Source of the DNA: a virus | DNA: 64,000 nt | Virus record (IMG/VR): IMGVR_UViG_3300045988_112440 | Reading direction: 5' to 3' (one strand) | In this document: piece by piece, positions 1 to 64,000 of the stretch | Layout: each line of letters opens with the position of its first letter | Position numbering within the stretch: the stretch's first letter is position 1 | Made by a program: the position numbers and the translations under genes | The notes under the pieces: generated by a model | The model's input: the letters and a program-made list of their open reading frames with translations, nothing else | The model's database searches: none | What the model was told of the DNA's origin: nothing

Positions 1-541
1 CAAGTTTACCAAGTTTGTCCTCATCCAGAGTTCCTTGCTCCTTGGCAAGATCAAGAATCTCTGCCTGAATGTCTTTTGCTTGGTCAAAGTCCTCGGTGTC
101 CCAACCAGACTTGTCGCCAAGTTCTTCATAAGCACTGACCAAATCCTTTAAAGAGGAAGTGGTGCTCTGCGCAGCATCGGCGGCTTCCTTAGATTTCGTG
201 GCCGCAGTGTCAATACGCTGAGAATATTCAACAAATTTCTTTGTTATCCACGACAATGCAAAACCAATGCCAGCGCTTAATGCGGCATTAAGTAAAATAG
301 CTCGTGCCCGAAGCAACAACATACTGAGTGACAACTTGTTTGTTGCACCCTCGGCTCCCTCTGCTTGAACTTTACTTTGGATTAAAGCTGTGGTAAGATT
401 ACTAAGAGAAGGCCTTGCTCCGTTTGCCGCTTCTTTACACTGATTGTAAACTGCAACTAAACGCAAAAATTTCTTGATTATTGTGTCCCAAATGCTAGAT
501 GTCGTATCTGTTCCATTAGTAGAAAAGAAAGTTAATACCAA
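1..541 (-). CDS. membrane-anchored coiled-coil protein, possibly a second tape-measure segment (N-terminal part; ORF runs off window start)
   Basis: Frame open on - strand from TTG 539-541 to base 1; absent from ORF track because no stop lies in the window. Hydrophobic LLLRARAILLNAALSAGIGFALSWI is followed by an Ala/Lys/Glu/Asp-rich helix. RBS weak, so start uncertain. Confidence 0.45.
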   Translation of the reverse strand, partial: MVLTFFSTNGTDTTSSIWDTIIKKFLRLVAVYNQCKEAANGARPSLSNLTTALIQSKVQAEGAEGATNKLSLSMLLLRARAILLNAALSAGIGFALSWITKKFVEYSQRIDTAATKSKEAADAAQSTTSSLKDLVSAYEELGDKSGWDTEDFDQAKDIQAEILDLAKEQGTLDEDKLGKL

Positions 542-564
542 TCTACTTTTATGAGGAGAAAGTT

Positions 565-966
565 ATGAAAAAGATAGGATACTGTCATTGGTGTAACAAA
601 TATGCCGATTTAAATTATGGCTTTTGCCCGTTTTGCTCAAGTCAACTGATATCAATCAGTGCATGGAATAAAATGACCAACAAAGAAAGAGAAGATTGGT
701 TAAATAGAAATCCTAGACACAACCCTCCTAAAAAAATGTGGGGTGTTAATCTTGACTCCGCAGAAAAGGAAAACAAGCAAGCCCGTGCTCAACTTGAAGA
801 GGAAGCTCGTCTCGCTCAGTACAAGCCCACTTGTCCAGTGTGTCATTGCCCTGACTTAGAGAAAATCTCCGGCTTTGACAAGACTGTGGATATAGCTGTT
901 TGGGGCGTATGGTCGAGAAAGGCACATAAGCAGTTTAAATGCAAAGCGTGTGGATATGAATTCTAA
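565..966 (+). CDS. zinc-ribbon protein (CxxC pairs at both ends)
   Basis: 133-aa ORF with AGGAGA RBS; CHWC..CPFC at N-terminus and CPVC..CKAC at C-terminus; opposite strand to surrounding late genes (moron-like). Confidence 0.7.
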   Translation: MKKIGYCHWCNKYADLNYGFCPFCSSQLISISAWNKMTNKEREDWLNRNPRHNPPKKMWGVNLDSAEKENKQARAQLEEEARLAQYKPTCPVCHCPDLEKISGFDKTVDIAVWGVWSRKAHKQFKCKACGYEF

Positions 967-1058
967 CATTCTCCGTCAAATGTGAACTCCTGTTCATTTA
1001 CTTCTTTGTCTTTTTATGGTAGACTTAAATAAAGACTATAAGAAAGGAGGAGGTCACA

Positions 1059-1265
1059 ATGACTAGAGAAGAGTTTAATAAGATTCTTCAAGACGAGATC
1101 GAGAAGAATCGGAATAATTTTGCCAACGCTCTGTCGGCAAGAGAAGACAAGAAGATGACAGTTGAGCAAATGGTTGCCGCTGCGTACAATATGGCAGTCA
1201 CAGACGCAACCGCATCTCTTGTTGCTACTCTCGAAAAAATTGGTGTACTCAAGTACGAAGATTGA
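1059..1265 (+). CDS. hypothetical small protein
   Basis: 68-aa ORF preceded by GGAGGAGG RBS. Confidence 0.6.
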   Translation: MTREEFNKILQDEIEKNRNNFANALSAREDKKMTVEQMVAAAYNMAVTDATASLVATLEKIGVLKYED

Positions 1266-1401
1266 GTTGTGAAGTGATTTTTTGAGGCAGTCCTTTAACA
1301 ACTTCCTCAGCTAATACTTGAGTGTTACCAATAGGTTCTCGCTGCCCCTTGATATAGTCAAGAAAGGCAGTGAGTTCTTTTGTTTCAATTTCAATTTTCA
1401 T
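1249..1401 (-). CDS. hypothetical small protein (50 aa, internal Met of the 71-aa track ORF)
   Basis: ATG 1399-1401 has a GAGGT RBS about 10 nt upstream; MKIEIETKELTAFLDY... Confidence 0.3.
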   Translation of the reverse strand: MKIEIETKELTAFLDYIKGQREPIGNTQVLAEEVVKGLPQKITSQLNLRT

Positions 1402-1433
1402 ATACGAATTTACCTCGATTAAAAAATGCAAAG

Positions 1434-1517
1434 TTGGTTGATGTAGCAATATGGGGCTGGGCAAGCAGAAAGCCCGGCAAACAGTTCAAGTGTAAGAACT
1501 GTGGATACGAGTGGTAA
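1434..1517 (+). pseudogene. relic of the C-terminus of a second zinc-ribbon gene
   Basis: Translates LVDVAIWGWASRKPGKQFKCKNCGYEW*, matching TVDIAVWGVWSRKAHKQFKCKACGYEF* at the end of 565-966. No start codon and no N-terminal half. Confidence 0.5.
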
Positions 1518-1549
1518 AAGAAAAGCCCTGCCACACAAAGTAGCAGGGT
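1512..1549 (-). terminator. rho-independent terminator after 1568-2188
   Basis: Hairpin GCCCTGC/GCAGGGT (1525-1549), followed on the - strand by TTTTCTTTT. Confidence 0.6.
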
Positions 1550-2796: not shown

Positions 2797-3046
2797 AATA
2801 AAACACCTCCGTATATTTTGGATACGCAATTGTACTTTTATTATAGCCAGAATATCGTATGTAGTCAACGAATATTTTGTTTTCTCCTATTTGTATCGCG
2901 CCAGAGAATAGCGCGTCTCCTCGTTTCCACCTACTTCTTTAAGTCGTCTGATTACGTCTGAGGTGGACTTCTGAACTTTCGTCCAGAACTGACTATCTTT
3001 CCAGTGGTTGCTCACTGACCCTTTTTAGTCGATGAACCTTCCACCC

Positions 3047-10395: not shown

Positions 10396-10430
10396 TAAAA
10401 ATAAAAGAGCAAGGTCAATCAACCTTGCTC
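10396..10430 (-). terminator. rho-independent terminator overlapping the stop of 10415-11161
   Basis: 9-bp hairpin GAGCAAGGT/ACCTTGCTC, then TTTTATTTTT on the - strand. Confidence 0.6.
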
Positions 10431-11161
10431 GTCCAATCCAGTTGTGCTTTTGGAATCTTTCCAAATTCCACGGTGCCAGCGTAAACGCCATGCATCGTAT
10501 TGTCGTAACTTTTTATTTGCTGAATCTTTCTTACATGATTCATGAATACACTCATAGGGTAATCCATAGCCTTGAAGTAATCCGCTTTAAAGCCAGACGA
10601 ACACGCCATCGAGAGCACAAGCTCCGCAAGGTGTGGTTCATAACGCTTAATTTTTTGATACTCCAAGTTATCTCTGGCTTCCTCTATCATTGCAATTCTT
10701 GTCGGTTCGTCGGCAGCAAACTCGGAATGCTTTTCAATTCCATTCGCAGCACATAGGTACTGAGAAATCGTTTCATACACCACATGGTCAATACGAGTGT
10801 CCGTAAGCCTGTTGTGTAATACGATTTCACCACTTATGTTATCTTTCGCCATCATAAACCCAGAAGTGTCCATATCGCCAAGCAAAATAGACATATCTTG
10901 ATCTTTATTGCCTATAAAAAGTTGCCGGAACATTTCAAAGTCCGAAATCTTCTGCCAATCAATTCCAACAGAGTCAAGCTGTGCCTTGTAATCGCTCGAT
11001 GTAGAACAGAATAAATAAACTAACTGAAAATACTTTTGCTCACCATAATCGATGATGTCACCGACAGAAGGCATGTGAATCGTAATTTTGTCGTTGATTT
11101 TAAAGTCTCTTCCGCGCATCAAGCTTGGCTCGTACATTTCCCGAAGTTCCATCAGCCACAC
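10415..11161 (-). CDS. hypothetical morphogenesis protein
   Basis: 248-aa ORF in the head-tail joining region; overlaps its neighbours. Confidence 0.6.
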   Translation of the reverse strand: MWLMELREMYEPSLMRGRDFKINDKITIHMPSVGDIIDYGEQKYFQLVYLFCSTSSDYKAQLDSVGIDWQKISDFEMFRQLFIGNKDQDMSILLGDMDTSGFMMAKDNISGEIVLHNRLTDTRIDHVVYETISQYLCAANGIEKHSEFAADEPTRIAMIEEARDNLEYQKIKRYEPHLAELVLSMACSSGFKADYFKAMDYPMSVFMNHVRKIQQIKSYDNTMHGVYAGTVEFGKIPKAQLDWTSKVD

Positions 11162-11631
11162 CCCACAAGGTCATCCAGATCCTGCGTCTTGAACGTCATA
11201 ATTCGCACACGATGGTGTAAATCCATATTGTCCTCGATATTGGATGTGATTTTAAGCTGTTTGATTCCAAAAATTGTACTGCCGTGTAGTTCTTTTTCCA
11301 CAAGACCACTCAGATAGTCAACTCGTGTTGCACCACCATGGCCCTTCATTTTCATCAGCGCCTGGTTCACAATAACCCATACAGTAAGTGTGAAGTTTTC
11401 ATACCAGTCGTTGACGTTGCTTCGGTCAGTCATATTTACCTTAAAACAAATATAGCTGTGCGCTGCCTCAATCGTGTCAGGAATATGGAAGTATGGGAAG
11501 ATGTATGTATAAATCGCCTCGTCAGGCTCTTCAATGTCATCATTGCCCATCGCTTCAACAAGCCCATCAGTATTAACCAGCTTCAAGGCCAATTTGTTTT
11601 TATAATCAGTAATCAATTCACTCGTTGTCAC
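11152..11631 (-). CDS. hypothetical head-tail joining protein
   Basis: 159-aa ORF, translationally coupled on both sides. Confidence 0.6.
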   Translation of the reverse strand: MTTSELITDYKNKLALKLVNTDGLVEAMGNDDIEEPDEAIYTYIFPYFHIPDTIEAAHSYICFKVNMTDRSNVNDWYENFTLTVWVIVNQALMKMKGHGGATRVDYLSGLVEKELHGSTIFGIKQLKITSNIEDNMDLHHRVRIMTFKTQDLDDLVGCG

Positions 11632-12653
11632 AGCAAACTCACCACCTTACATTCAATGGATGCATTTGCTGTACCATCTGCATTCGTCAAAGAAATCCTA
11701 ACAGTTGCGCCGTCCATAATACTATTATTCAAAATACGAATTTTAAAAGTACCATCGTCGGCAGTCTGCGTTTCTACAAATTCCTTGAATTCCTCAAGGC
11801 AAACGAACTTCCACTTAGCAATTTCAGTAATTTCCTCGCCAGCAACACTTGTGAACATAGGAGAGAATTTTTTCCAAGAACCACCAATACGAACCTCTGG
11901 TTTTCCTACATACTTTATAGTAGCTGTCACACGAGAATCTATTTCTGATTCGTCGATTTTGTTTGGCTCAAAATAATCACAAATCATCTTCTCAGCATTA
12001 TCCGTCTTACTGTTATACTGATCCTGCCGGATGTTCAACACAAGGAACCCCTGTGTCCTACCATGCAGTTCGTAACGCTCTGTACTCTGGTCAACAGAAG
12101 TCGTAACATACGTTTTCGGCTCGCCATTGATAATTTCCAACATAAAGCGCTTATCAAGGTCAATCAGTGCGGTCTCGTCATCAAAAGGCATCTGTACTTT
12201 ATATTCACGTTGACTCAATGAAGTCATGATAATCTCCTTATTATTTGCGTAATAAGGCTTACTCAGTGTTGCCCAACGAGAGACTATCTCACCAGTAATC
12301 GGATTTTGCCATTGGATTTGACGGTTACACAGCTCCATTTTTCCACGAAGAAAAATTTCATCGTTTGGTTCAATCTCAGTTACCAGCTATTTACAATTGT
12401 AGCAGTCAACAATGTCGCCAAGATTCAAAGAATCACCAGGATAAGCCCAGATTTTCTTTTCCTTAGCAATACTATTACTGCGACTAACAACCAGCTTCTG
12501 AGGTAAACCATTCACAAGAGCATTATCCTCGTAATCAACGCTATCTTTAAAATGTGCAGCAAAATCTCGCTTTGCAAAAGCAATTTTGACATCCTTTTTG
12601 TTAGACATTTTTGCGGCACCACCAACAGCTCGTGCCCTTGTATAAAAGTCCAT
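11628..12653 (-). CDS. structural protein with one in-frame TAG (12387-12389); C-terminal Ig-like segment
   Basis: The 88-aa ORF (12387-12653) and the 236-aa ORF (11628-12338) share one frame. A single TAG plus 16 open codons separates them: ...DIVDCYNCK-TAG-LVTEIEPNDEIFLRGKMELCNRQ... No convincing RBS before the internal ATG. Confidence 0.6.
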
Positions 12654-18802: not shown

Positions 18803-20653
18803 TTAGAAGTCAATGTTAGAAATACAAATCGGCGGAGCAGTCATTGTCTCCACCGCAGACTGGCGCACTTTATCCTTACGACGTAATTCGTATAGACGAT
18901 GAGCAAGTAAAATTGCAACATAGAACCTATCATCGTGAATTTTGTTGGCAACATCGGGTGCCAAAGCATATGTTACGGTCGTATTTTCAGAGTTTGTCGT
19001 TTTCTGAATACTTGTGATCTCGTTCTTCATCAAGTCGATGTTAACCCACGCAGTCTGTTCCTCTAAGGAAAGTTCATGCGTCTTCAAAATTTCTTGACCA
19101 GTTGATTTATCCACACCGTCTACTACCTGAACATAATCTCCGCCGTTGTATTCAAGAGGGAAATGAATGACACCAAGATTCATCAGCTCAATAAATTCCT
19201 CAACCATTGCAGTGCGGAATTTACGAGGACTAATTAGACGTAGCTTATCAACAGCATCTGGGTAACGGGTATCATATCCTTCATATAATTCATGATTTGC
19301 GTCGATAAAACCACGATGTTCTGCACCTGTTTTATCAGTCCAATTGTTAAGTAAACCGTCCGCATATGTGGAAGTACCACCGCCACCAGCGCCTTGGTCA
19401 ATCATCAATCTATCAATGTACTCATAATCAGGATTTTGACCATTGTAATGTAGAATCAACTCATGTAACTGCTCAAGCTGACGATTAGAATCGAGCTTGA
19501 ATTTTTTCTCGTTCGCAAGATCAACCATGTTCACGCAATTTATAATGTCGCCACACATGCCGTTTTCTGGATCGTTATAAATGCGCATAACGCCAACAAT
19601 AGAGTTATCCATTGTGCGGGCAGGATCAAACGCAAGAATATACTGATAGTTCCTATCCCAATAAAGCTGTGGGATATACTTTCGCTCATTGCGACGAACC
19701 GTACCCCATTTGATAATCTGGTTTACGCCACCATCACGGCTTGGTCGATTATAATACTCACGCAATGCCTTCATTTTATTTGACTTTAGAGCTGCATCTA
19801 CCTTGTCTTGTGTCAATAGTGCTTTGTATGGCTTACCCTTCATATAAACTTTGATTGCAACGTCACAAATCATATCACAAACAAAATAATCTCGATCTCC
19901 TGCAATCATGCGCTTTGCAAATTGCTTGTAGTATTTATAAAAAAGCTTGTCCATCGTGTCCTGACTTGAAGCATAAACTAGCTGAGTAGGAACCTGACGA
20001 GGCTGCATTTCAGGATTATAGTCACTGTCAGTGTCAGTGACGAAATCCGTATTCTGTGTTGCAAAAGCTTCACAGACAACAATCAGTTCGTCGGAGCAGA
20101 ATGCCGCCTCATCAAAGAAAATAAGACTAGCTCGCTTGCCACGCACACCATCTGGGTTGGAGTTCAAAGTGTTAATAGAACTACCGTTATAAAACTCAAC
20201 AACATACCCGGCGGGATTATGACTAAAACCACTTTTGTTGGTTGCAGACTTTTTCGTTTCTTTCTCTGCAATATCTTGCAGACTACGGATAGACGCAGCC
20301 GTCTTACCAACACGAGTAACAATTTCCTCGATCTTATTAAATGTCTCTTTTGCCTGATCACCTACATTACTTACAATGTAAATAGACTGGTTCTCATATA
20401 ATATTGCCTTTAGGATAATGAAAACAGAACCTACAAAAGACTTGCCAAAGTTTCGACTACACGCCTAAAGAACATGACTTGCATTCCAGCTTTGTTCCAG
20501 CATATATGCCTGAGCGTCAAATAATTGGATACCCAATAAATCTCTAGCCGCAATAACAGGATTGCGCCGATAGAATGCAATCGTTGCCGCATCACACTCA
20601 TAAATCTTACGTTTTGCGGCTGTAATAATAGGCGCTCTTTGTTTCATCCTCAT
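18803..20653 (-). CDS. terL: terminase large subunit with one in-frame TAG (20465-20467)
   Basis: N-terminal ORF ends ...QSWNASHVL-TAG. The same frame continues ACSRNFGKSF (Walker A) for 100 open codons into the 454-aa ORF (LIFFDEAAF Walker B, nuclease half). No independent start for the downstream part. Confidence 0.8.
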
Positions 20654-21777: not shown

Positions 21778-22166
21778 ACAAACACCTCCATTCAAAATCA
21801 AAATAAAAGCCGTAGAACGTGCGCACATCCTACGGCAAACAAAAGATCCACCCTCATGAGCACCAATAATCTGGGAGGCCGGGTGGATTTAATTCTATAA
21901 AAGACCTGCTATGATACGCATCGTTGAGAGGCTGAACAGGTTCTGTTCAAAATTCGACCTCAGCATTTTGACACCGTAGTGAGCTAAGGTCTTTATCATC
22001 TATTTGGGCTTACGCCCTGCCGACGAATCGGCTGAATTTTGTATTTACGGCCAGCTTTACGCCGACCGTGCCACCTGAAATACACAGGCAGGACTGTTCA
22101 TAAAAGGACCTACCGCCAGAGGGAGTAGAAAACTGGCGATAGGCTTGCGAAAGGGGAGATGTTGGG

Positions 22167-22345: not shown

Positions 22346-22422
22346 TGGCACGCCCAGAGAGACTTCAACTCCCAAGAGGCAGATTTAGAGTCTGCTGTTT
22401 TAAGCAATTAAACTATAGGCGC
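22346..22422 (-). tRNA. suppressor tRNA, anticodon CUA (reads UAG)
   Basis: Hand-folded cloverleaf: acceptor GCGCCUA/UGGGCGU, D stem GUUU/AAAC, anticodon stem GCAGA/UCUGC, loop CU-CUA-AA, 5-nt variable loop, T stem GGGAG/CUCUC, G73, encoded CCA. Confidence 0.85.
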
Positions 22423-22486: not shown

Positions 22487-22578
22487 TGGCGCGGTCTCAG
22501 AGATTCGAACTCTGGCATCGGGTTTACCGACCTAACGGTGTTCAGGACCGTTCTCTTCAACCACTTGAGTAAGACCGC
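22487..22578 (-). tRNA. tRNA-Ser(UGA), type II with long variable arm; unusual C at position 33
   Basis: Acceptor GCGGUCU/AGACCGC, 3-bp D stem, anticodon stem ACGGU/ACCGU, loop CCUGAAC, variable arm with UCGG/CCGA stem, T arm CAGAG-UUCGAAU-CUCUG, G73, CCA encoded. Confidence 0.75.
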
Positions 22579-25914: not shown

Positions 25915-26670
25915 TCATAAATCAAACATTTTTCTATTTTGTGCGGTTTTCTCAATATTTACGTTTTTAGCGCACTTACGACAGTATTTTTGTCTGCGTC
26001 CGGTGCGAGCAACCATCTTTCCGCAACAATCACACTTGATGTACTCTTTCCCACAATACTGACTCCACAGAATACCAGCATTCTCAAAATCGTCCACAAA
26101 AATCTCATGAGGAGAATCCGGCTCTGCAATCAAAATATGGATGTTCAAGTTGTCAATCTTTTTCAAGCTGGCAAACCCAATAAAGCCAAGATTATGTAAC
26201 TCACAGATCATCTCGTTCTGTTTTTTCTCATTTGCAGATACGTTTGCCATCCTGAAAATATCAGCCGTATCTTCCGTAATCCAGTAGTTGCATTTTTCAT
26301 TAACGGCAATATGGTATTTTGCCAGACACAGCATTGTGAACATCAGGCGTTGCATCTGCTTGCTTTCAAGTGCTTGAATCTTCTCTACCTCAGCCTTTGT
26401 AATGCACACACCATCAAGTTCCACCATAGGACGACCCTTTGCAGAAGCAATTGCTTTATCAATCAGCTCTCTATCTAGAACCTTGTTATACCCTTCAAAA
26501 TGACGCAGCATATACTCGTTAAGCTTTTCTCTTACGTCATCCTTTGAGTATCCCTTATAGAAATAATACTTCGCAATATAATGCAAAACATGCCCCGCTT
26601 TCTTCCAAGGCACATCCTTCTCTAGCCATTCTTCAGCGTAAAGAACTTCATTCAATACAATCATCCGCAT
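25915..26670 (-). CDS. hypothetical protein with C-terminal zinc ribbon (possible RNAP accessory/regulator)
   Basis: 251 aa; CDCCGK..CRKC; overlaps the RNAP-like gene end by 23 nt. Confidence 0.6.
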   Translation of the reverse strand: MRMIVLNEVLYAEEWLEKDVPWKKAGHVLHYIAKYYFYKGYSKDDVREKLNEYMLRHFEGYNKVLDRELIDKAIASAKGRPMVELDGVCITKAEVEKIQALESKQMQRLMFTMLCLAKYHIAVNEKCNYWITEDTADIFRMANVSANEKKQNEMICELHNLGFIGFASLKKIDNLNIHILIAEPDSPHEIFVDDFENAGILWSQYCGKEYIKCDCCGKMVARTGRRQKYCRKCAKNVNIEKTAQNRKMFDL

Positions 26671-29431
26671 CCTCCTTGCTATTCATGTCAACCAACACAT
26701 CCTTGAAACGCTTGCCGTCATATTCAATATCGCCATTCTCATCCTGCACAAGAGAATGCACCATACCATTATGGCGTTCCAATAAACGTTTAATCAAAGT
26801 ATCATGGAACAACTCCCAGACGATTGCAATACTGGACGCATTCTTTTTACAAAGATCAAGCAGAATGTCGCAAAGCACATCGTCATTAGAACACTTATCG
26901 TGAAGATTGCGGAACATACTTTCCTGATACAGCGCAATTCGCTCCTTGCGGTCTGCGCCGGTTTCCTTATTATTATTTCCGTTACCAGAATGGATTGCGT
27001 TGCCACGAGCAAATCTCAAATAGTCCTTAAAGATAGAGCGGATGCCATAGTATTGAGAATTAGTGTATTCAACGCCATACTTGAGCGAATCATAATCAAA
27101 CTTGCGCTTTATCTTGAGTTCTTCCTCAAAATCCTCCAATTCATCCTCAACGGTCCAGCATAGGCGGTTCATAGTACAAGAGTTGATTCCGACCGGCATC
27201 CGATAAATGTAATACTGGATAACCATTTCATCCACGTCGTCCTTGACGGTCTTTTGCATAATCTCATCCAGACCGGCAAACCCATCCCACTTGATGCGCT
27301 TGCGAGCTGCGGCCACATACTGCTTATAATCACGCATCTGAGCAGGGTAGATGTAGCTCATAAAGTACGGCTTACGCCATGCGCAAATACTACTCCAAAA
27401 CTTCTTATCCTCGATAGTATCAGGATTATCATCGTCTTTAGCAGCACAAGCTTTGTTGTCATACCAATACTGCGGCATAGGTACGCAAGAAATTCCCTTT
27501 ATGCGATCAATTGTATCTTGTTGATATTTCTGGCCAGAAATAATACGATATGTAAGCTCTTTATATTCTCTACTTTCTGGCTCAAATTTACTCTGTACAT
27601 CAAACATTGTGGTGATACGATTGGTTACCTTGCCGATATCGTCACCAAATCCATTGATGTTAGATTCAATGAAATCCTGCTCGGTTGGAACTTTCTTTTC
27701 ACCTTTTTTCTGAGCGCAAAGAATTACAGTCTCGTTTCTCCATTTATCAAGGAGAATTCTATTGTCTGTACTGAAAATAAGATCGCCATCCCAATCCATT
27801 CCATCTAGTGCAGCACACGTATTATCAAACGCACTTACGATAGCCACCGTTTTAATGTAGCGATACCAATTCTTGCATTCATCACTCGAATTTAAATCTA
27901 AACACCGAATGTTTGCCATTTGACTCATCGGTGCTCTAAAGCAGGCTACCCGCTTAACATCGCGGTCGTTCCAGAATCGGCTGTAAACCTCTCCAGCTTT
28001 TAACAGTCCAGTAACTTCCATTCCAAAGATAGATTGACAAAGCGCATAAGGGTCTCCACTTGCCACTTGGAAATTCCCTCGTACTTTCACAACACCCGTT
28101 TTTGCTTGCGAAATTCGCTTTTTAATAAAGTACCGAATCCGATTCTGCACATAAGGGTCGTTAATCATTTCCGGCTCAATCATAAGAGCCTTAATATAGT
28201 CGTTTTCCAGACTGTTTATGTAATTCGGGTCATCACGCATTCCACTACCACGCAAATACAGCAACGCATCACGCCAGTCACCGCCCATGACGCCCTTGAT
28301 CTCATCCAAAGTTGGCTTCACGAGCTCATGTATCTCTTCGTTCGTAAGCTGATAGCTTTGAATAAACTGATAATTCAAGTTACGCTCTTCATCAAGCTCC
28401 AACTCACAAGTCTTTGTTACAGAGAAATGGTAGTGATTTTCCTGGCAATTCTCAAAGTAGTCCTCGCAACTATGATAACTATCCCACAACTTGAGCATCG
28501 ACCCTGTGAGAATCACCTGTACGCGATTAACATCCTTGTAGTTCCCCCAAATATCGCGTACCATGTTCTGTTTCGCTACCTTCTTAGCAAACTCGCGAAA
28601 AGGGAAAGGGAATAACATGCCTTTACAAAATGCGTTGCGTACACAAAAGCCAGATGCGGTGGATGGTAGCTTCAAATCCTCACTCCATTGCTGTGCGAGA
28701 TCGTAACTGATGAGTCCAAAACCGTCGCTTGCACAAAGCTCACAGTCCTGCTCAGGATTCTCCACCATTGTAGGTTCACCAGACACTCCGTCATCCAGAA
28801 CGATTACATGGTCTTTAAAATGCGTGAAACAATCATCTACAACAAGCACACCGTCAGGGTCAGTAACAGGAATAGATGCGGAGCAGGCGAGAGCCCTGTA
28901 GGCTTCTAGCTTTGCCGGAATGAACTCCATTCCTTTGTTACGGCCATTATCGATTCGCTTGCGGATCTCATCAATAAGACAGTCACTTACAAACACAATC
29001 GTGCTGTTCTTAACACCACCGGTAGTCCCAACCAAGCGGCGATATGTGATTCCATTGATTTTAAACCCCTTTGGAGAGCAAGCCCGGCGGTAATCATTCT
29101 TCTTATCTACTACCAGGCACATATAATCCGGCTTGAATTGAACTGCGTCCAGCTCAGTATACAGCCTCCGAATCTCCCGTCGGTTCTCTAAACAAGATGG
29201 CTCATTCCGCAACATTTTAATTCTACGCTTGATGCTCCGTGCCTTAGCCTCTGCGTCCGTAACACCATTCAACTCATCAATCCATCGTAGAACAGTGCTA
29301 TCAGCAAGCGAGATGATTTCGTGATTTCGTCTGGCTTCATCCAATGGTAGAGTTAAATCCCATTTTGTTTCAACTAGACGCTTCGTATGGATCTTAAAAA
29401 CAAACTTTTGGCAAGTTTGCTGCTTTGCCAT
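26648..29431 (-). CDS. single-subunit double-psi-beta-barrel RNA polymerase-like protein (YonO / cellular-RdRP-like)
   Basis: 927 aa; ...VACFRAPMSQMANIRCL..., then about 45-50 residues on, AALDGMDWDGDLIFS (DxDGD metal-binding loop). Confidence 0.6.
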   Translation of the reverse strand: MAKQQTCQKFVFKIHTKRLVETKWDLTLPLDEARRNHEIISLADSTVLRWIDELNGVTDAEAKARSIKRRIKMLRNEPSCLENRREIRRLYTELDAVQFKPDYMCLVVDKKNDYRRACSPKGFKINGITYRRLVGTTGGVKNSTIVFVSDCLIDEIRKRIDNGRNKGMEFIPAKLEAYRALACSASIPVTDPDGVLVVDDCFTHFKDHVIVLDDGVSGEPTMVENPEQDCELCASDGFGLISYDLAQQWSEDLKLPSTASGFCVRNAFCKGMLFPFPFREFAKKVAKQNMVRDIWGNYKDVNRVQVILTGSMLKLWDSYHSCEDYFENCQENHYHFSVTKTCELELDEERNLNYQFIQSYQLTNEEIHELVKPTLDEIKGVMGGDWRDALLYLRGSGMRDDPNYINSLENDYIKALMIEPEMINDPYVQNRIRYFIKKRISQAKTGVVKVRGNFQVASGDPYALCQSIFGMEVTGLLKAGEVYSRFWNDRDVKRVACFRAPMSQMANIRCLDLNSSDECKNWYRYIKTVAIVSAFDNTCAALDGMDWDGDLIFSTDNRILLDKWRNETVILCAQKKGEKKVPTEQDFIESNINGFGDDIGKVTNRITTMFDVQSKFEPESREYKELTYRIISGQKYQQDTIDRIKGISCVPMPQYWYDNKACAAKDDDNPDTIEDKKFWSSICAWRKPYFMSYIYPAQMRDYKQYVAAARKRIKWDGFAGLDEIMQKTVKDDVDEMVIQYYIYRMPVGINSCTMNRLCWTVEDELEDFEEELKIKRKFDYDSLKYGVEYTNSQYYGIRSIFKDYLRFARGNAIHSGNGNNNKETGADRKERIALYQESMFRNLHDKCSNDDVLCDILLDLCKKNASSIAIVWELFHDTLIKRLLERHNGMVHSLVQDENGDIEYDGKRFKDVLVDMNSKEDADDCIE

Positions 29432-32512: not shown

Positions 32513-32534
32513 ATTGCCTCCAGTTCTAATTTAG

Positions 32535-47771: not shown

Positions 47772-47936
47772 ATGAAATATATTATTGAAGATTGGTTGAC
47801 GGAAGAAATAATTAAAGTTTTTTCAAGTGAAGAAGAAAGAAATGAATGGATTGAGGACAATTGTACATGGTTTAGTGATGGATGCTTTATCACGGACACA
47901 GAAACAAAAATTTCAATTTATGAATCAAAACAATAG
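47772..47936 (+). CDS. hypothetical small acidic protein; the only gene here ending in TAG
   Basis: Start ATG 47772 (TGGAGA RBS); 54 aa; stop TAG 47934-47936. Confidence 0.45.
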   Translation: MKYIIEDWLTEEIIKVFSSEEERNEWIEDNCTWFSDGCFITDTETKISIYESKQ

Positions 47937-47972: not shown

Positions 47973-48251
47973 ATGAGTAAATTTAAAAATTTTCAGATTG
48001 GAGTAAAAGAAATTAGCAAAACATGGAATAGCGAAAATGTATTTTTTACGCAAATGCGTGACGGATATAGTGCTTCGTATAGACCAAAATATCCAGAATA
48101 TTGTAATGACGACATGATAATTCAGACATTAGAAGGGACAGGAGCAGTAAACCGTGGAGATTATGAATTGATAATTTTTGATGATGGAAAATTTACAAGC
48201 AAATATTTTAATGATACAGAAGAAATAAAAACGTATTTTGAAAACAGATAA
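47973..48251 (+). CDS. hypothetical protein
   Basis: 92 aa, AAGGAGAA RBS. Confidence 0.6.
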   Translation: MSKFKNFQIGVKEISKTWNSENVFFTQMRDGYSASYRPKYPEYCNDDMIIQTLEGTGAVNRGDYELIIFDDGKFTSKYFNDTEEIKTYFENR

Positions 48252-51258: not shown

Positions 51259-51522
51259 ATGAGTGAATTTGAAAATCATGTTTTCGATGTTTGGAATCGT
51301 TTTGTAAGAAATATGCCTTGTTGTCCAGAAGATGGTTGTGATCGTTGGTGTGATGGTGAGAATATTCTATGCAAAACATATGAAGATGCACAGAAGGTCG
51401 CTGATTATATTGATGAAAAGGCTGGACGAGCAATATCTGCTACCGGTTTTTATGATCCAGAAGAAGATAAGAGAATGGGATATGTAGATAAGTATACTGG
51501 ATGGTATTATGTCACAATCTGA
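51259..51522 (+). CDS. hypothetical Cys-rich protein
   Basis: Start ATG 51259 (GAGGTGA RBS); 87 aa. Confidence 0.55.
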   Translation: MSEFENHVFDVWNRFVRNMPCCPEDGCDRWCDGENILCKTYEDAQKVADYIDEKAGRAISATGFYDPEEDKRMGYVDKYTGWYYVTI

Positions 51523-53379: not shown

Positions 53380-53392
53380 AGGAGACGCAAAT

Positions 53393-58310: not shown

Positions 58311-59087
58311 ATGCCGAGAAGGAAAACAGTAGAAGCACTGCAATTAACGCCGAAAGAAATAGCTCGTAAGTCGCCTACTTTTATGGAGCTTCCTGAGATG
58401 GTAAGCCGTGCTGGTGAGCCTACATACTATTATGATGTGGGAGATGCTGTAGAGATTGGTCATCTTAGCGGATGCAAGATTGATGAAGTCTGCGACGGTG
58501 GTTTATATTACGGTGTTTCTTACGATGATGGATATAGGTACGAAACGTGGTTTAACATTCGTAAAGCAGGTATTGAGAAGAAATCTCAACTGACAGAGAA
58601 TGATGACATTAAGATTTCCTACTCAAATGTGACCATCGAATCCTTGCTCCACAGGTATTACTTCTTTGGCATCAACTGCAATCCGAGTTATCAACGTGGA
58701 TCTGTGTGGACAGATGATGACCGTAAACTGCTTCTTGAAACAATTTTTATGGGTGGTGAAATTGGTCGATTCGTTTTAAAAAATATTGATATGGACGAAT
58801 GGAATGAAAATCAGAATTACCTTTATGAAATCATTGATGGAAAGCAGAGGCTTCTGACGCTGACTGCATTCTACGAAGATCGTTTCCGTTACAAAGGATA
58901 TCTGTATAGTGAACTCTCTAAAAAGGACAAGAGAACATTTGATGAGGCCGTTGTTGCTATTGCAGATTTGCGGAATCTTTCTAAGAAAGATATGTTGCGT
59001 GTATTCTTGTTACTGAATCGTGGCGGCAAGGTTGTTACCAACGACGTACTTAATCATGCAAAAGAGTTACTAGATGAAATGGAGTGA
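58311..59087 (+). CDS. DUF262/ParB-like nuclease-domain protein
   Basis: 258 aa; NPSYQRGSVWTDDDRKLLLETIFMGGEIGRFVL and IIDGKQRLLTL motifs (the N-terminal domain type seen in GmrSD). Confidence 0.65.
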   Translation: MPRRKTVEALQLTPKEIARKSPTFMELPEMVSRAGEPTYYYDVGDAVEIGHLSGCKIDEVCDGGLYYGVSYDDGYRYETWFNIRKAGIEKKSQLTENDDIKISYSNVTIESLLHRYYFFGINCNPSYQRGSVWTDDDRKLLLETIFMGGEIGRFVLKNIDMDEWNENQNYLYEIIDGKQRLLTLTAFYEDRFRYKGYLYSELSKKDKRTFDEAVVAIADLRNLSKKDMLRVFLLLNRGGKVVTNDVLNHAKELLDEME

Positions 59088-59091
59088 GTAA

Positions 59092-59427: not shown

Positions 59428-59444
59428 AGAAGGAGAATAAGACT

Positions 59445-59600
59445 ATGAGTAGTGTACTTATTGATCGGAACGCAGCTAAGAAGGTAGAATCCATCTTCGA
59501 GCATCCTGATAAGGTCTATTCGGTGTATTTGAAAGCTGGCGGAGATGTCGTTTGGCTGCAAGGTGAAATTGAGTTGTATGAATTTTTGCGTAGCTTGTAA
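59445..59600 (+). CDS. hypothetical small protein (51 aa, below track cutoff)
   Basis: ATG 59445 behind an AAGGAGAA RBS. Confidence 0.45.
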   Translation: MSSVLIDRNAAKKVESIFEHPDKVYSVYLKAGGDVVWLQGEIELYEFLRSL

Positions 59601-59626
59601 AACTAAGTTTTAATATAGGTGATTTT

Positions 59627-60379
59627 ATGACAAGAAATGAATTGCTTGGAGCATTATGCTTTCCAGAATATAATTTTCTTCGGGAGAATGAGCATCTTGG
59701 CAAGCATATGATGTTCGTAACGGTCGGTGGCAGTCATGCTTATGGAACAAATGTTGAGGGTTCAGATCTCGACATCCGAGGGGTGGCATTAAATTCAAGA
59801 GAAGACCTTCTTGGTCTTGGTGAGTTTGAACATTATGTGGATACTCAAACTGATACTACAATCTACAGCTTTAATAAGGCTGTGAAGCTAATGTGCAGTG
59901 GAAATCCTAATATGCTGGAGCAGCTAGGGAACGCCGATGAACTCGTTATTAGCTATAATCCAATGACAAAGTTACTTATGGATAATAAAAAGCTGTTCCT
60001 GTCGAGGCGTGTAATCTATTCGTTTGGCGGTTTTGCAGGTAAGCTGATTCAGAAGGCTGATACGCTGGACAAAGATCCAATTTATCATGGCTCAAAGAAA
60101 ATGCACAAGACGGTAATGAATGTAGTTCGTGTATACCTGATGCTCTTTGACATCTTAGAAAAAGGTGAAATTAAAACCTATCGAGACAACGATCATAACT
60201 TCCTGACGCAGCTTCGCAACGGTGAATATGATTACAAAGAGATTCGTCAGCAACTGATTCCGGCCTATGAAAGCAGATTGTCAGTGGACAAGAGTGAGAC
60301 TTACCTGCCGGACAATGTTGATTGGAAGCGGGTCAACGAGCTTGTGATGACTGTAAATGAGGAGTCTTTAAAGATTTGA
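59627..60379 (+). CDS. Pol-beta-superfamily nucleotidyltransferase (RlaP/PF10127-like)
   Basis: 250 aa; VTVGGSHAYGTNVEGSDLDIRGV N-terminal nucleotidyltransferase motif. Confidence 0.6.
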   Translation: MTRNELLGALCFPEYNFLRENEHLGKHMMFVTVGGSHAYGTNVEGSDLDIRGVALNSREDLLGLGEFEHYVDTQTDTTIYSFNKAVKLMCSGNPNMLEQLGNADELVISYNPMTKLLMDNKKLFLSRRVIYSFGGFAGKLIQKADTLDKDPIYHGSKKMHKTVMNVVRVYLMLFDILEKGEIKTYRDNDHNFLTQLRNGEYDYKEIRQQLIPAYESRLSVDKSETYLPDNVDWKRVNELVMTVNEESLKI

Positions 60380-60406
60380 TAAAACCAATATTTTAGGAGT
60401 GATATT

Positions 60407-60586
60407 ATGAAAACTTTTGATGTTTTAAAAGTTGGACAGACTATTGTAGCCGAAGACGGGGACACAATGAAAGTTATTGATTATGATTTTTATGGGACAG
60501 GGCAGAATATCATGTGCTTTATGTCGGATCGTTGTGTATATCCATCAACTGAGTTTAATGCAGGCGATTGGGAGATTGAAAGTTGA
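60407..60586 (+). CDS. hypothetical small protein (59 aa, below track cutoff)
   Basis: ATG 60407 behind a TAGGAGTG RBS. Confidence 0.45.
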   Translation: MKTFDVLKVGQTIVAEDGDTMKVIDYDFYGTGQNIMCFMSDRCVYPSTEFNAGDWEIES

Positions 60587-60613
60587 AAGGAGGTTTTATT
60601 TATCACTAATAAG

Positions 60614-61228
60614 TTGTTAACAAATCGTGAGCAAAGCGTTGCTATTGTGTGTATAATGTGCCTGCTGGCAGGGAATTTAGTAATAAAAGCGTTACCGAAT
60701 ACTGAAGTTGGAGGCACATATACATATTATAATGATCAATCGGTTCATAATGTTACACAGGCAACAAAAGAAGATGAGAACGATGAACCTACAATTTTTG
60801 TAAAGAAAATCGTTGAAACGAAGGTGGTGAACTTTAGCCAGGGTAAACATGAACTCACTGATGATGAGCGTGCTCTTGCAGAGCAGATTGTTGCTTGTGA
60901 AGCAGGTGCTGACAGTTTGGAAGGCCAGATGGCCGTTGCTCAATGTCTTTATGATTCCGCTGTACTTGATGATTTAACCATCCAGCAGGTCTTTAAGAAG
61001 TATGGTTATAGTTCCTTATATAATAGGAAGGTTACAGCAGAGAATGAGCTGGCTGTCTCTATGGTGTTTGATTATGGTGCTAAAATTTCAGACAAACCTA
61101 TCCAATGGTTTGTAACCCCGACTGCAGCTCCCGGCAGTTGGCACGAGCGTGGAGCAACCTTTGCTGGACAATTTGGCGCACATAGGTTCTATTATGATTC
61201 GAAGTTGGTTGTGGATGATGCTGAGTGA
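60614..61228 (+). CDS. SleB/cell-wall-hydrolase-like protein with N-terminal membrane anchor
   Basis: 204 aa. LAEQIVACEAGADSLEGQMAVAQCLYD resembles the Hydrolase_2 (SleB) signature. The TTG start lies 20 nt after the GGAGG RBS, so the start is uncertain. Confidence 0.55.
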   Translation: MLTNREQSVAIVCIMCLLAGNLVIKALPNTEVGGTYTYYNDQSVHNVTQATKEDENDEPTIFVKKIVETKVVNFSQGKHELTDDERALAEQIVACEAGADSLEGQMAVAQCLYDSAVLDDLTIQQVFKKYGYSSLYNRKVTAENELAVSMVFDYGAKISDKPIQWFVTPTAAPGSWHERGATFAGQFGAHRFYYDSKLVVDDAE

Positions 61229-61281
61229 ATGGCGTCATCTAAAATTTTGATAAATAATACAACAAAAAGATGTGTAATATA

Positions 61282-61309
61282 TTGACTAAAACAAAAGGCT
61301 GTGTATAAT
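61282..61309 (+). promoter_or_regulatory. sigma-70/sigma-A-type promoter TTGACT-16-TATAAT (TG directly upstream of -10)
   Basis: -35 at 61282-61287 and -10 at 61304-61309. Confidence 0.55.
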
Positions 61310-61353
61310 ATATCTTGAAAGTTGTTTGTGTGAGCGGAAGGCGGTTATTCTTG

Positions 61354-61680
61354 ATGAGCGATAGAAAGGTTTTGAAAGTTATACGGGTTGATGATTTTTT
61401 AAAGTACATAAGAAAAAAGCGAGTGTGGGTCTGCTTTGTTTGTAATGGTGTGGATATTCACATGATCTGCAAAAAGATTGACGACATTGGCGTAGAGACG
61501 GGTGGGATTGTTAATGGCGTGGGGTTCTTCGGAAATGAGAGTCACATCGAGTTGCGACAAAAATGCCATGAAGTAAGGAGAATTGAACTTAGGTCTGGCT
61601 GTGCAGAGAAAGCGTATGAGATGATCTTCGATAATACTAGTGTGTTCGTATCAGAGAATCCTGAGTTGTACGGGCACTAA
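61354..61680 (+). CDS. hypothetical protein
   Basis: Start ATG 61354 preferred over the track TTG at 61315; 108 aa. Confidence 0.5.
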   Translation: MSDRKVLKVIRVDDFLKYIRKKRVWVCFVCNGVDIHMICKKIDDIGVETGGIVNGVGFFGNESHIELRQKCHEVRRIELRSGCAEKAYEMIFDNTSVFVSENPELYGH

Positions 61681-61699
61681 AAATATTTTCAAAAACCTC

Positions 61700-61728
61700 T
61701 TGACTTCTGTGATTGTATCCTGTATAAT
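61700..61728 (+). promoter_or_regulatory. sigma-70/sigma-A-type promoter TTGACT-17-TATAAT
   Basis: -35 at 61700-61705 and -10 at 61723-61728; overlaps copy 6 of the 20-nt element. Confidence 0.6.
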
Positions 61729-61735
61729 GTAGCTA
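61716..61735 (+). promoter_or_regulatory. 20-nt conserved element copy 6 (TATCCTGTATAATGTAGCTA)
   Basis: Overlaps the -10 of the promoter for the MazF-like/recombinase-like gene pair. Confidence 0.6.
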
Positions 61736-61771
61736 TGGAACGGAGCTACATCATTGTAGAGGAGAATGACT

Positions 61772-62191
61772 ATGGATAACAATATTGACCCAAAGGTCGG
61801 AGAGGTTTGGTTGGTTGATCTATCCAATGCGACAGGTCATCAGCAGCGCGGCATTCGACCGTTCGTTGTGACAAGTAACAACAAGCGTAACTTCTTCAGC
61901 CCAACAATCAAAGGGAATCCGTTATCTTCAAGAATATATAAGCGTTCTCCGGTTCATGTTCTACTCTCAAAGGAAGACTGCGAGTTCCTAGAGGTTGATA
62001 GTATCGTTCTCTGCGAAGAGACTGATACACTTAACAAAGGACAGTTCATCAAGAAACTTGGTGTCTTGTCGGAGCGTCAGATGAATATGATTGCAATGGC
62101 AAGATGCAAAGATGAACCATTTTTGCTCGCAGCATTTCTGAGCGGTGTACAACATACTATGGAATTTCAGAATTTTGCCGCATTTGCTTGA
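61772..62191 (+). CDS. MazF/PemK-family toxin-like endoribonuclease
   Basis: Start ATG 61772. KVGEVWLVDLSNATGHQQRGIRPFVVTSNN...PLSS...VDSIVLCEETDTLNKGQFIKKLGVLSERQM fits the PemK fold pattern. No obvious MazE-like partner lies directly upstream. Confidence 0.65.
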   Translation: MDNNIDPKVGEVWLVDLSNATGHQQRGIRPFVVTSNNKRNFFSPTIKGNPLSSRIYKRSPVHVLLSKEDCEFLEVDSIVLCEETDTLNKGQFIKKLGVLSERQMNMIAMARCKDEPFLLAAFLSGVQHTMEFQNFAAFA

Positions 62192-62242
62192 TTTGTTCTC
62201 AGGTTTAATGGTACACTACATAATAAGAAGGAGTGTGCCACT

Positions 62243-63169
62243 ATGCTTACTGAAGAAAAAATCAAATCTTTTGCCGAAAAGTATTCTGATAGAAGCGGTG
62301 AGTTTGTTATATCGACGCTTAACCATGTTATGGATTACGAGGCCGAGCGTGGATATGAGTTGTTTGACTTCACAAAAGATGATTTTGTAAGGATGTTTGC
62401 TAAATACAATTGGGTGAACTCAAGTCGGTCGTTCAGAAATGTAAAGTCGATAATTACAGGGTACATCAAAAGTGATGATCGAGCGAGTATGTATGACTTA
62501 GCTGAATTCTCGGAGAGCGATGTGAGTTCAGACAATATGTACGAGGACAAGTATTTTGCATCAGTTGATGAGTTTGTTGATTTCTTGGACAAGTATGAAG
62601 AACCATATCAGATTCGTATGAACGTGATTGCCGTACTGTACTGGATTGGACTTACTTCTGAAGAGGTTTCTAATCTGACAATCAACAATGTTGATTTTGA
62701 ATCATGTACTGTTCTGAATAGGACCGGTGTTGACGCAAGACTGATGAATATCATTAAGCAGTGTTATGAAATGAAACAATACGATGCTCCAAATATGGGA
62801 GGATACAGAACGTTTTATGTCATAAATGGTGATTACATCCTTCGCAAAACAGAGGATAGAACTGGTGCAGACAGTGATTCAAGAATGTCTACAAACACAA
62901 TTCATAGTTATTTCACGCGCTTGAATGATATTCTCGAAAGAAGATATCATTCAAAGGCTTTAGACCGAAGACATCTGACTAGAAACGGCGAGTATGTCAA
63001 GGTTTATAACTACTGTAAAACTCATCCAGAATTTAATCTTGCAGAACTTAGTTTCGGAAATGGTAAAGATCCTCTTGCGGACATTATCGGAAGAAAGTGC
63101 AGCAAGGTTGCCTACATTAGTTTCCGGCAAGGATACAAGGGCTGGATCGAATACTTCCACAAAAATTAA
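62243..63169 (+). CDS. degenerate tyrosine-recombinase-like protein (Arg I lost); candidate DNA-binding regulator
   Basis: 308 aa; recombinase-like layout, but box I reads WIGLTSEEVSNL (Thr in place of Arg); HLTRN retained; AAGGAG RBS. Confidence 0.5.
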   Translation: MLTEEKIKSFAEKYSDRSGEFVISTLNHVMDYEAERGYELFDFTKDDFVRMFAKYNWVNSSRSFRNVKSIITGYIKSDDRASMYDLAEFSESDVSSDNMYEDKYFASVDEFVDFLDKYEEPYQIRMNVIAVLYWIGLTSEEVSNLTINNVDFESCTVLNRTGVDARLMNIIKQCYEMKQYDAPNMGGYRTFYVINGDYILRKTEDRTGADSDSRMSTNTIHSYFTRLNDILERRYHSKALDRRHLTRNGEYVKVYNYCKTHPEFNLAELSFGNGKDPLADIIGRKCSKVAYISFRQGYKGWIEYFHKN

Positions 63170-63173
63170 AAAC

Positions 63174-63197
63174 AGGGGGCTTCGGCCCCTTGATTTT
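63174..63197 (+). terminator. rho-independent terminator
   Basis: AGGGGGC-TTCG-GCCCCTT hairpin followed by GATTTT. Confidence 0.7.
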
Positions 63198-63204
63198 AAC
63201 ATTG

Positions 63205-63224
63205 TAACTATATAACACAGGATA
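63205..63224 (-). promoter_or_regulatory. 20-nt conserved element copy 7 (reverse complement TATCCTGTGTTATATAGTTA)
   Basis: Ends about 10 nt before the RBS of the Pnkp-like gene. Confidence 0.6.
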
Positions 63225-63246
63225 CTTATTAGAAAGGGAAATGTAG

Positions 63247-64000
63247 ATGAGAACGCTTTTGCTGTTCCGTGGAGCACCAGGTTGTGGGAAGTCCACCTAT
63301 ATTAAAGAGCATAATCTTGAACAGTACGTATTGAGTGCTGATACACTTCGCCTTATGTGCCAGAGCGCACAGGAAACACCTGCCGGGCAGATGGAGATTT
63401 CTCCGCAGAATGATGATGTTGTATGGGAGATGCTTTTCAAACTGCTTGAGGTGCGTATGAGTCATGGCGAGTTTACCGTGATTGATGCAACGAATTCCAA
63501 GACGGTCGAAATGAATCGTTATAAGAATCTGGCAAAACAGTATCGTTATCGGATGTATGTTATTGACATGACTGACCTTCCGATTGAGGAATGCAAACGA
63601 AGAAACGCTCAGAGAGAATGGCTGAAGCGAGTTCCTGAAGCGGCCATTGATAAGATGTACGCTCGGTTTGCTACTCAAAAAGTTCCTTCTGGCGTGACAG
63701 TTCTTCCTTCTACTACAGATGTGATGTCCGATTTGAATTACTGTCCGAATGACTTCAACCAGTGGAAGAAGATCCATGTCATCGGTGATGTTCATGGCTG
63801 TTATACTTGTTTAAGTGAATACCTTGGCGAGATGAAGGACGACGAACTTTATATTTTCGTTGGTGATTATCTCAATCGTGGCATCGAAAACGTTGAGGTA
63901 TTCAAGTTCTTGTGTGATGTTGTAAATAACAACCGCAAGAATGTGATCCTTTTGGAAGGGAATCACGAGCGTTGGCTGAACAAGTGGGGGCATGATGAAC
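63247..64000 (+). CDS. pnkp: polynucleotide kinase-phosphatase (Pnkp-like), 5' part; runs off window end
   Basis: Not in the ORF track (no stop in window). MRTLLLFRGAPGCGKST P-loop kinase domain, then HVIGDVHG, VGDYLNRG and EGNHE calcineurin-type phosphatase motifs. Confidence 0.7.
   Translation, partial: MRTLLLFRGAPGCGKSTYIKEHNLEQYVLSADTLRLMCQSAQETPAGQMEISPQNDDVVWEMLFKLLEVRMSHGEFTVIDATNSKTVEMNRYKNLAKQYRYRMYVIDMTDLPIEECKRRNAQREWLKRVPEAAIDKMYARFATQKVPSGVTVLPSTTDVMSDLNYCPNDFNQWKKIHVIGDVHGCYTCLSEYLGEMKDDELYIFVGDYLNRGIENVEVFKFLCDVVNNNRKNVILLEGNHERWLNKWGHDE

Follow-up and report, generated by a model that had tools for sequence, protein, structure and literature searches.

Probable reading of TAG as tryptophan through a tRNA-Trp-derived amber suppressor in an SPbeta-like gut phage

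Introduction

Borges et al. (bioRxiv 10.1101/2021.08.26.457843) observed only two kinds of stop-codon recoding in gut phages, TAG to glutamine (Gln) and TGA to tryptophan (Trp), and proposed a model in which a stop codon is depleted, a suppressor tRNA is then gained and recoded stops then appear in structural genes. In one TAG-to-Gln phage, phAss-1, 41 open reading frames (ORFs) contain TAG, three suppressor tRNAs are of the Gln type and TAG falls on Gln columns of alignments (PMC10607447). A literature search found nothing relevant on TAG (UAG) read as Trp, and no paper on such a reading in phages. Here we describe a 64,000-nucleotide stretch of virus DNA, IMG/VR virus record IMGVR_UViG_3300045988_112440 (the whole stretch is called the window below), in which the large terminase gene, terL, and a second late gene each contain one in-frame TAG and in which a tRNA with the anticodon CUA is encoded. 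The phage encodes a tRNA-Trp-derived amber suppressor, and TAG replaces Trp codons at conserved positions of its late genes; we consider it likely that TAG is read there as Trp and that selection has removed TAG terminators.

The phage resembles the recoded gut phages of Borges et al. and of Peters et al. (PMC9523058) in carrying its own suppressor tRNA, in having recoded stops in structural and packaging genes, in the depletion of the recoded codon as a terminator even among standard-code relatives, and in the fact that very close relatives differ in coding state. Unlike the phages of Borges et al., the assignment here appears to be TAG to Trp. The recoding is also sparse in comparison with recoded gut phages (2 sites in 64 kb), and depletion is specific to TAG, with TGA abundant, at a window GC content of 41%. 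Code 15 phages (crAss-like phages and phAss-1; PMC10607447) likewise have in-frame TAG in terL and virion genes and a tRNA(CUA). In contrast to phAss-1, the present phage has a Trp-type tRNA, and its TAGs fall on Trp columns; phAss-1, although similar in size, was set aside as an unrelated TAG-to-Gln phage. In gene order and gene families (YonO-like RNA polymerase, YonK/J/G/D/B, YomW/U) the phage is like Bacillus phage SPbeta, its terL is distantly similar to those of the SPbeta group and its relatives are 125-138 kb in size. It differs from SPbeta in a terL identity of only about 26%, in its gut-metagenome source and in having two tRNA clusters and an amber suppressor.

Results

A CUA tRNA of the tRNA-Trp type in the late region

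The tRNA cluster on the late strand of the window, between the YonJ-like and YonG-like genes, has the following features.

22346..22422, minus strand: amber suppressor tRNA, anticodon CUA, tRNA-Trp type (ARAGORN; Rfam tRNA model, 53.1 bits, E = 2.8e-10)
22487-22578, minus strand: tRNA-Ser(UGA) (ARAGORN, Rfam)
22773-22845, minus strand: tRNA-Thr(UGU) (ARAGORN, Rfam)
21809..21836, minus strand: terminator-like hairpin with a T run behind it, immediately past the end of the cluster and ahead of the YonG-like and terL genes (consensus scan only)

The CUA anticodon of this phage-encoded tRNA matches the recoded stop TAG. ARAGORN called it 'tRNA-Pyl' from the anticodon alone. A promoter-like site was found upstream of the YonK homologue by consensus scan; together with the hairpin, it indicates that the CUA tRNA is probably made together with the late genes.

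The tRNA was compared with those of related genomes, which were sampled as 87 loci centred on terL. In these relatives the slot that follows tRNA-Ser(UGA) holds tRNA-Trp(CCA) in 8 genomes and the CUA tRNA in many others. This slot, with tRNA-Ser(UGA) and tRNA-Met on either side, is taken by one or the other form in genomes with terL proteins that share 96-100% identity. Of the 21 tRNA species encoded by these phages, the CUA variants and tRNA-Trp(CCA) alone have the acceptor stem GCGCCyr/yGGrCGT with a G1:U72 pair and the discriminator G73; the phage tRNA-Gln(UUG), encoded in a second tRNA cluster, has an acceptor stem and discriminator unlike those of the CUA tRNA. Since acceptor stem, G73 and genomic slot are all shared, the CUA tRNA is a tRNA-Trp derivative with C35 changed to U, and the comparison shows the suppressor to be a descendant of the phage tRNA-Trp(CCA). 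It is a derivative and not a standard tRNA-Trp because its anticodon is CUA and not CCA. Overall identity, which is 66% to tRNA-Trp and 69% to tRNA-Asn for the CUA tRNA of the window, does not by itself assign it to Trp, so it is placed with tRNA-Trp by its acceptor stem, discriminator and slot.

The tRNA exists in at least 7 diverged variants. When eight sequence variants were folded, they gave a single cloverleaf; compensatory changes were seen at 13 of its 21 pairs, and the acceptor stem and anticodon loop were invariant, which is the pattern expected of functional tRNAs that keep one synthetase identity. Two variants with unusual T loops were missed or mislabelled by ARAGORN, once as Leu(tag) (for example in L019, L025, L067 and L069). 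A pattern search recovered such missed CUA tRNAs in 16 loci, between tRNA-Ser(UGA) and tRNA-Met, and surveys that rely on ARAGORN would consequently undercount suppressors.

Several other observations concern the tRNA genes and their surroundings. In both tRNA clusters of the relatives, tRNAs with an unusual A34 or rare anticodons were predicted, namely Ser(ACT), His(ATG), Tyr(ATA) and Ile(TAT), and these are possibly mis-registered. The ORF that leaves the right end of the window (63247-64000, plus strand) is the start of a 733-aa fusion, continued in a relative (L186, 11005-13206), with polynucleotide kinase (AAA_33), metallophosphatase and T4-type RNA ligase 1 domains, as in a tRNA-repair-type enzyme. 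In relatives this gene is followed by the second cluster of 7-8 tRNAs (three Leu, Pro, Gln, Gly, Met and sometimes His). HNH, GIY-YIG and TnpB (Cas12f-like) genes are inserted around the late-region tRNA cluster in some relatives (L091, L092 and L098 among the loci).

In-frame TAG codons on tryptophan columns

Two genes of the window become full-length only when one TAG is read through.

18803..20653, minus strand: terL, encoding the large terminase; 616 codons when its one in-frame TAG is read as sense (translation; PHROG terminase matches span the TAG)
20465..20467, minus strand: in-frame TAG at codon 63 of terL, immediately ahead of the Walker A motif, W-ACSRNFGKS (homologue alignment)
11628..12653, minus strand: late (virion-module) gene, 341 codons, read through one in-frame TAG (translation; full-length 341-aa homologues)
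12387..12389, minus strand: in-frame TAG at codon 89 of the 341-codon gene (homologue alignment)

There are terL homologues of 616 aa with 85-96% identity. Residue 63, which lies in the context SWNASHVL-X-ACSR, is Trp in 110 of 120 homologues. In four others (P0007, P0013, P0015 and P0016; L001-L003) the database protein has 'Q' at this residue. The underlying DNA has TAG, so the Q was produced by a gene caller that uses code 15. We believe that residue 63 in these public entries is probably Trp and that the database sequences are likely wrong at a conserved site. Codon 89 of the 341-aa protein lies in the context DCYNCK-X-LVTEIEPNDEIFLR, where X is the TAG position, and aligns with Trp in 19 of 21 homologues and with Phe in the remaining 2. 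Alignments to homologues run on both sides of both TAGs and the two genes are otherwise intact. Reading TAG as sense merges only these two genes of the window, with no marked gain in coding density or gene length. The recoding is thus sparse and incipient; with coding density barely altered, detection methods based on density would miss this phage.

All called proteins were then searched against all related loci. The recurrent clean in-frame stops in relatives were TAG only, on Trp or aromatic columns, and nearly all of them, like both sites of the window, were in late genes:

terL, W63: 30 loci
terL, W56: 3 loci
341-aa protein, W89: 23-25 loci
341-aa protein, W69: 19 loci
homologues of 10415..11161: 10 loci
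homologues of 11152..11631: 4 loci
YonG-like protein: 4 loci

One exceptional TAG site falls on a Tyr column. The earlier note on this DNA had proposed a search of the rest of the genome for more in-frame TAGs, and six more were indeed present on Trp columns in tail genes of the relatives, beyond the left end of the window. Many apparent in-frame TAA and TGA matches from the all-against-all search were rejected as stops upstream of start codons or as a conserved non-coding repeat. If Gln were inserted at TAG, the sites should favour CAG, which is 2.5 times commoner than TGG in late genes (236 versus 94 codons); by chance, all 8 recurrent sites would hit TGG and none CAG with a probability of 4e-5.

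Two observations concern terL entries in databases. In some relatives (L004-L007) an inserted LAGLIDADG endonuclease gene interrupts terL, and such insertions explain truncated terL entries in the protein database. One homologue, P0051, is 745 aa long with an N-terminal PP-loop ATPase domain (PF01171, TilS-like tRNA-modifying family), and may be a gene-calling fusion with an upstream gene.

Co-occurrence of the CUA tRNA and in-frame TAG

Within 10 kb of terL, a TAG on a Trp column was found in 46 of the 52 loci with a Trp-type CUA tRNA, compared with 3 of the 35 loci that lack one (p = 2e-14). The six remaining CUA-bearing loci have no TAG nearby. None of the 8 genomes with tRNA-Trp(CCA) has such a TAG. 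One of the three exceptions is a 4.8-kb contig without the tRNA region. The other two, L022 and L024 (8622-8657), retain only the 5' half of the CUA tRNA, which ends just past the anticodon, and the 3' half is absent from the locus; both still have TAG at W89 of the 341-aa protein. These two may be decaying prophages, or their suppressor may be located elsewhere.

TAG as a terminator in the window and in relatives

Using our own codon-usage scorer, we called 105 ORFs in the window, of which 53 end in TAA, 49 in TGA (47% of stops) and 3 in TAG. The three TAGs (12387-12389, 20465-20467 and 47934-47936) are the same three that the earlier note had picked out by eye. Two of them split longer genes, and after merging only 1 of 103 genes ends in TAG. 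TAG makes up 11% of off-frame stop triplets within genes and 16% (19 of 116) of the first in-frame stops upstream of gene starts. Against the upstream-stop baseline the terminators give a Fisher p of 3e-5, and the binomial probability of at most 1 TAG in 103 is 8e-5 at 11% and 3e-7 at 16%. The near-absence of TAG as a terminator, which the earlier note had claimed for this window, is therefore real and is not compositional, since TAG is 11-16% of unselected stop triplets. Low GC content does not explain the loss either, given 41% GC and abundant TGA. Looser thresholds added two marginal TAG-ended ORFs, for a total of at most 3 in about 120. The TAG-ended ORFs to be considered are as follows.

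47772..47936, plus strand: small early ORF of 54 aa, the only clear TAG-terminated gene, with TAG at 47934-47936 (gene call)
2887..3015, minus strand: possible 42-aa ORF ending in TAG at 2887-2889 (low coding score, status uncertain)
51332..51487, plus strand: marginal 51-aa TAG-ended ORF (looser thresholds only)

The gene at 47772-47936 was described in the earlier note as lying in one frame with the gene at 47973-48251, with no other stop between them, and the downstream gene as having its own ribosome-binding site. Both descriptions are correct: readthrough would fuse the two genes, and 47973-48251 has a AAGGAGAA site and an ATG. No homologue of 47772..47936 was found in the related loci, and the homologue of 47973..48251 stands alone in L103. 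The TAG at 2887-2889 is kept in relatives with and without the suppressor, in some of which more stops lie behind it.

The use of TAG as a terminator among the relatives and in sister lineages was as follows.

Late orthologues, genomes with the CUA tRNA: TAG 0 of 1064
Late orthologues, genomes without a Trp-type tRNA: TAG 2 of 433
Late orthologues, genomes with the CCA tRNA: TAG 1 of 164
Early-region loci, all groups: TAG 0.8-1.5%
Region to the right of the window: TAG 19 of 2409
Sister lineages (collinear, with terL identity of 65-71% and lacking the CUA tRNA): TAG 14 of 112 (12.5%)

Across the clade about 60 of 8097 terminators are TAG, versus 14 of 112 in the sister lineages (p = 8e-13). 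Since the sister lineages do not avoid TAG, the avoidance in the clade is derived. More than 10 genes have orthologous stops that vary between TAA and TGA, yet a change to TAG was seen on three occasions only, each confined to one locus that lacks the CUA tRNA. That TAA/TGA switching is common while TAG is rare points to selection against TAG.

Phage identity and other features of the window

Late genes occupy about 1.5 to 32.5 kb of the window on the minus strand, and many small early genes occupy about 35 to 63 kb on the plus strand; the GC skew changes sign at 32-34 kb. At this point, in 32513-34975, between the divergent modules for late and early functions, no genes were called in two long stretches (about 1.0 and 1.3 kb); the region probably has a regulatory role or serves as an origin. 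The window represents about half of an SPbeta-like genome, given that related contigs in IMG/VR measure 125-138 kb; IMGVR_UViG_3300045988_103888 is an example of a complete relative of about 135 kb. The window is the central part of an SPbeta-like gut phage with a whole genome of about 135 kb. Precomputed Pfam annotation of the relatives' orthologues gave the SPbeta families YonO-like RNA polymerase, YonK, YonJ, YonG, YonD, YonB, YomW and YomU. Membership of the SPbeta-like group is indicated by the YonO-type RNA polymerase and the Yon/Yom virion module in conserved order, the window being collinear with its relatives.

26648..29431, minus strand: YonO-like single-subunit RNA polymerase (PF05183 on relatives' orthologues; PHROG matches)

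This polymerase identifies the phage as SPbeta-like and as having late transcription machinery of its own. Neither an aminoacyl-tRNA synthetase nor a release factor turned up when the ~35 largest proteins of the window and its flanks were scanned against PHROG and Pfam, with about 70 kb of the ~135-kb genome lying outside. No cultured phage matched the terL region in a megablast search of INPHARED. A protein search with terL gave only distant matches, to the SPbeta group and to Clostridia phages, and no close cultured relative was found at either the megablast or the protein level. A scan of reference genomes returned distant prophages only, in a Eubacteriales metagenome-assembled genome, in Anaerovorax and in a bin labelled Bacteroidota. 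Prophage-bearing contigs were also encountered, among them the 329-kb ENA scaffold KIMC21-1_SAMN16796219_METAG-scaffold_31.

Up to three tyrosine-recombinase-like proteins are encoded in the window (7148-8137, minus strand; 53369-54238 and 62243-63169, plus strand). Two of the three match Pfam Phage_integrase, one of them within the late virion operon, and 62243..63169 has a weak match to the MrpR core-binding domain, below the curated cut-off. The early run at 58311-62191 (plus strand) contains genes for a GmrSD N-terminal domain protein (58311..59087), an RlaP-type nucleotidyltransferase (59627..60379) and a MazF/PemK-like toxin (61766..62191), and by their predicted domains these genes resemble defence or counter-defence genes. 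A conserved sequence of ~75 nt with several stops in one frame is present in about 30 early-region loci (e.g. L110 3889, L141 4271). It looks like a non-coding repeat or a regulatory element upstream of small early genes.

Discussion

The earlier note had proposed, from the scarcity of TAG terminators, that TAG is reassigned through a suppressor tRNA. The present analysis supports this with the CUA tRNA itself, the in-frame TAGs in conserved late genes, the link between the two across relatives and the terminator frequencies of ~1% in the clade versus 12.5% in sister lineages. The Trp-type features of the tRNA and the position of TAG on Trp columns make TAG to Trp the likely code change, judged from alignments and tRNA comparison, rather than the TAG to Gln of code 15 that public gene callers assume. 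We are further inclined, with little more than even confidence, to see in this clade a natural TAG-to-Trp variant at an incipient and polymorphic stage. The tRNA slot would hold a CCA or a CUA tRNA, TAG would have been purged throughout the clade, and TAG would now be re-entering as a Trp codon at a few conserved packaging and virion sites, thereby making those genes dependent on the phage tRNA.

The proposed mechanism is as follows. A tryptophanyl-tRNA synthetase (TrpRS), probably that of the host, would charge the CUA tRNA with Trp, as the codon positions suggest. Once the tRNA is made, ribosomes would decode TAG as Trp, with release factor 1 competing for the codon, and this decoding would give full-length terminase (codon 63) and full-length virion-module protein (codon 89). 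At gene ends the same readthrough would add C-terminal extensions, and selection would remove TAG terminators in favour of TAA and TGA across the clade in which the tRNA circulates. Essential late proteins would then probably stay incomplete unless the phage tRNA is expressed, so that packaging and virion genes would be under a translational lock, for instance in a lysogen. If the CUA tRNA is made along with the late genes, as is probable, such a lock is a better description of its role than a separate timer. Alternatively, the TAG sites may be near-neutral passengers that the suppressor tolerates.

Several points weigh against reassignment to Trp or against parts of this mechanism. The related genomes are close kin, so that independent events are fewer than the counts of sites and loci suggest. 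Scanning reference genomes did not reveal the host, nor with it the level of TAG that is usual there. Close relatives without the suppressor avoid TAG as strongly (about 0.9%) as those with it, so that avoidance does not track the tRNA genome by genome and is a trait of the clade rather than an adaptation of each genome. The location of the CUA tRNA within the late region itself weakens the idea of an earlier timing gate. Some TAGs do not fall on aromatic columns: about 9 single-locus cases lie on Gln columns, one site in 2 loci lies on a Glu column, and in 13 loci TAG aligns with Ser in a variable stretch of a ~2094-aa tape-measure-like protein. Single-locus TAA and TGA nonsense codons occur at a similarly low rate, so part of these cases is noise. 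Trp insertion is inferred from sequence comparison. The anticodon is moreover a major identity element for TrpRS. In E. coli, a tRNA-Trp with a CUA anticodon lost recognition by TrpRS and was charged by glutaminyl-tRNA synthetase (GlnRS; PMC2965240). By analogy, this precedent is the main reason for caution about the Trp assignment. The laboratory suppressor has the same CCA to CUA change in a tRNA-Trp body with G73. The CUA tRNA here differs from it in being a natural, conserved and diversified gene family, and codon positions argue for a retained Trp identity, unlike the Gln identity of the laboratory mutant.

The E. coli precedent also speaks for standard code 15. The CUA tRNA would then be charged with Gln, or with a mixture of Gln and Lys, because U35 redirects its identity, and the Trp positions would tolerate the substitution. 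The finding of Borges et al. of only TAG to Gln and TGA to Trp in phages, the Q that public gene callers place at these TAGs and the few single-locus TAGs on Gln columns are in line with this. We consider it unlikely. Despite the greater number of CAG codons, all 8 recurrent sites near terL, and the 6 sites in tail genes as well, coincide with conserved columns of Trp or aromatic residues, and terL W63, beside the Walker A motif, is near-invariant. Acceptor stem and discriminator fit tRNA-Trp and not the phage tRNA-Gln(UUG). The TAGs align with Trp (110 of 120 and 19 of 21 homologues) rather than with Gln, and the 'Q' entries are themselves TAG passed through a code 15 caller. Many Firmicutes, in addition, have no GlnRS, which would remove the GlnRS charging route. 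Pyrrolysine, the reading that the ARAGORN label suggests, has only the CUA anticodon in its favour, and we regard it as practically negligible: the tRNA has a normal cloverleaf that fits the general tRNA model, is homologous to tRNA-Trp and corresponds to TAG sites that are Trp columns, and no pyrrolysine-related or aminoacyl-tRNA synthetase domains were seen among the window proteins scanned.

TAG could also be read as Trp with the in-frame TAGs having no regulatory role, TGG-to-TAG changes being near-neutral drift in late genes and terminator loss the sole selected feature. Such a neutral origin of the sites is plausible, though in our judgement somewhat improbable. In its favour, there are few sites, they are polymorphic, and genomes that are nearly identical differ in them; in six loci with the CUA tRNA no TAG lies close by, and the tRNA lies within the late region that it would serve. 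Drift does not account well for the distribution of the sites, however: about 120 TAG occurrences were counted in late loci versus about 8 in comparable early-region sequence, even though TGG is commoner in early genes (145 versus 94 in late genes), and the TAG at terL W63 persists across relatives with terL 85-100% identical to that of the window. It is very improbable that there is no reassignment, with TAG scarce because of the host or of composition and the in-frame TAGs being nonsense mutations in decaying prophages or assembly errors. The missing host identification, the avoidance of TAG by suppressor-free close relatives and the background of single-locus TAA and TGA nonsense codons would agree with it. 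The same TAG sites, however, recur in dozens of independent assemblies and track the presence of the CUA tRNA, in an essential gene, and neither the 11-16% of TAG among unselected stop triplets nor the 12.5% among stops of the sister lineages is expected from it.

If TAG to Trp is correct, it would be a new natural code variant beside TAG to Gln and TGA to Trp. It would also mean that in some bacteria, in contrast to E. coli, a tRNA-Trp can have a CUA anticodon and still keep its Trp identity. Public gene callers split these genes or put Gln at TAG, and the database sequences of an abundant group of gut phages are probably wrong at conserved tryptophans. The states present in the clade, which are no suppressor, tRNA-Trp(CCA), and the CUA suppressor with from zero to several TAG sites, offer a natural series for the loss of a stop codon and its recapture as sense.

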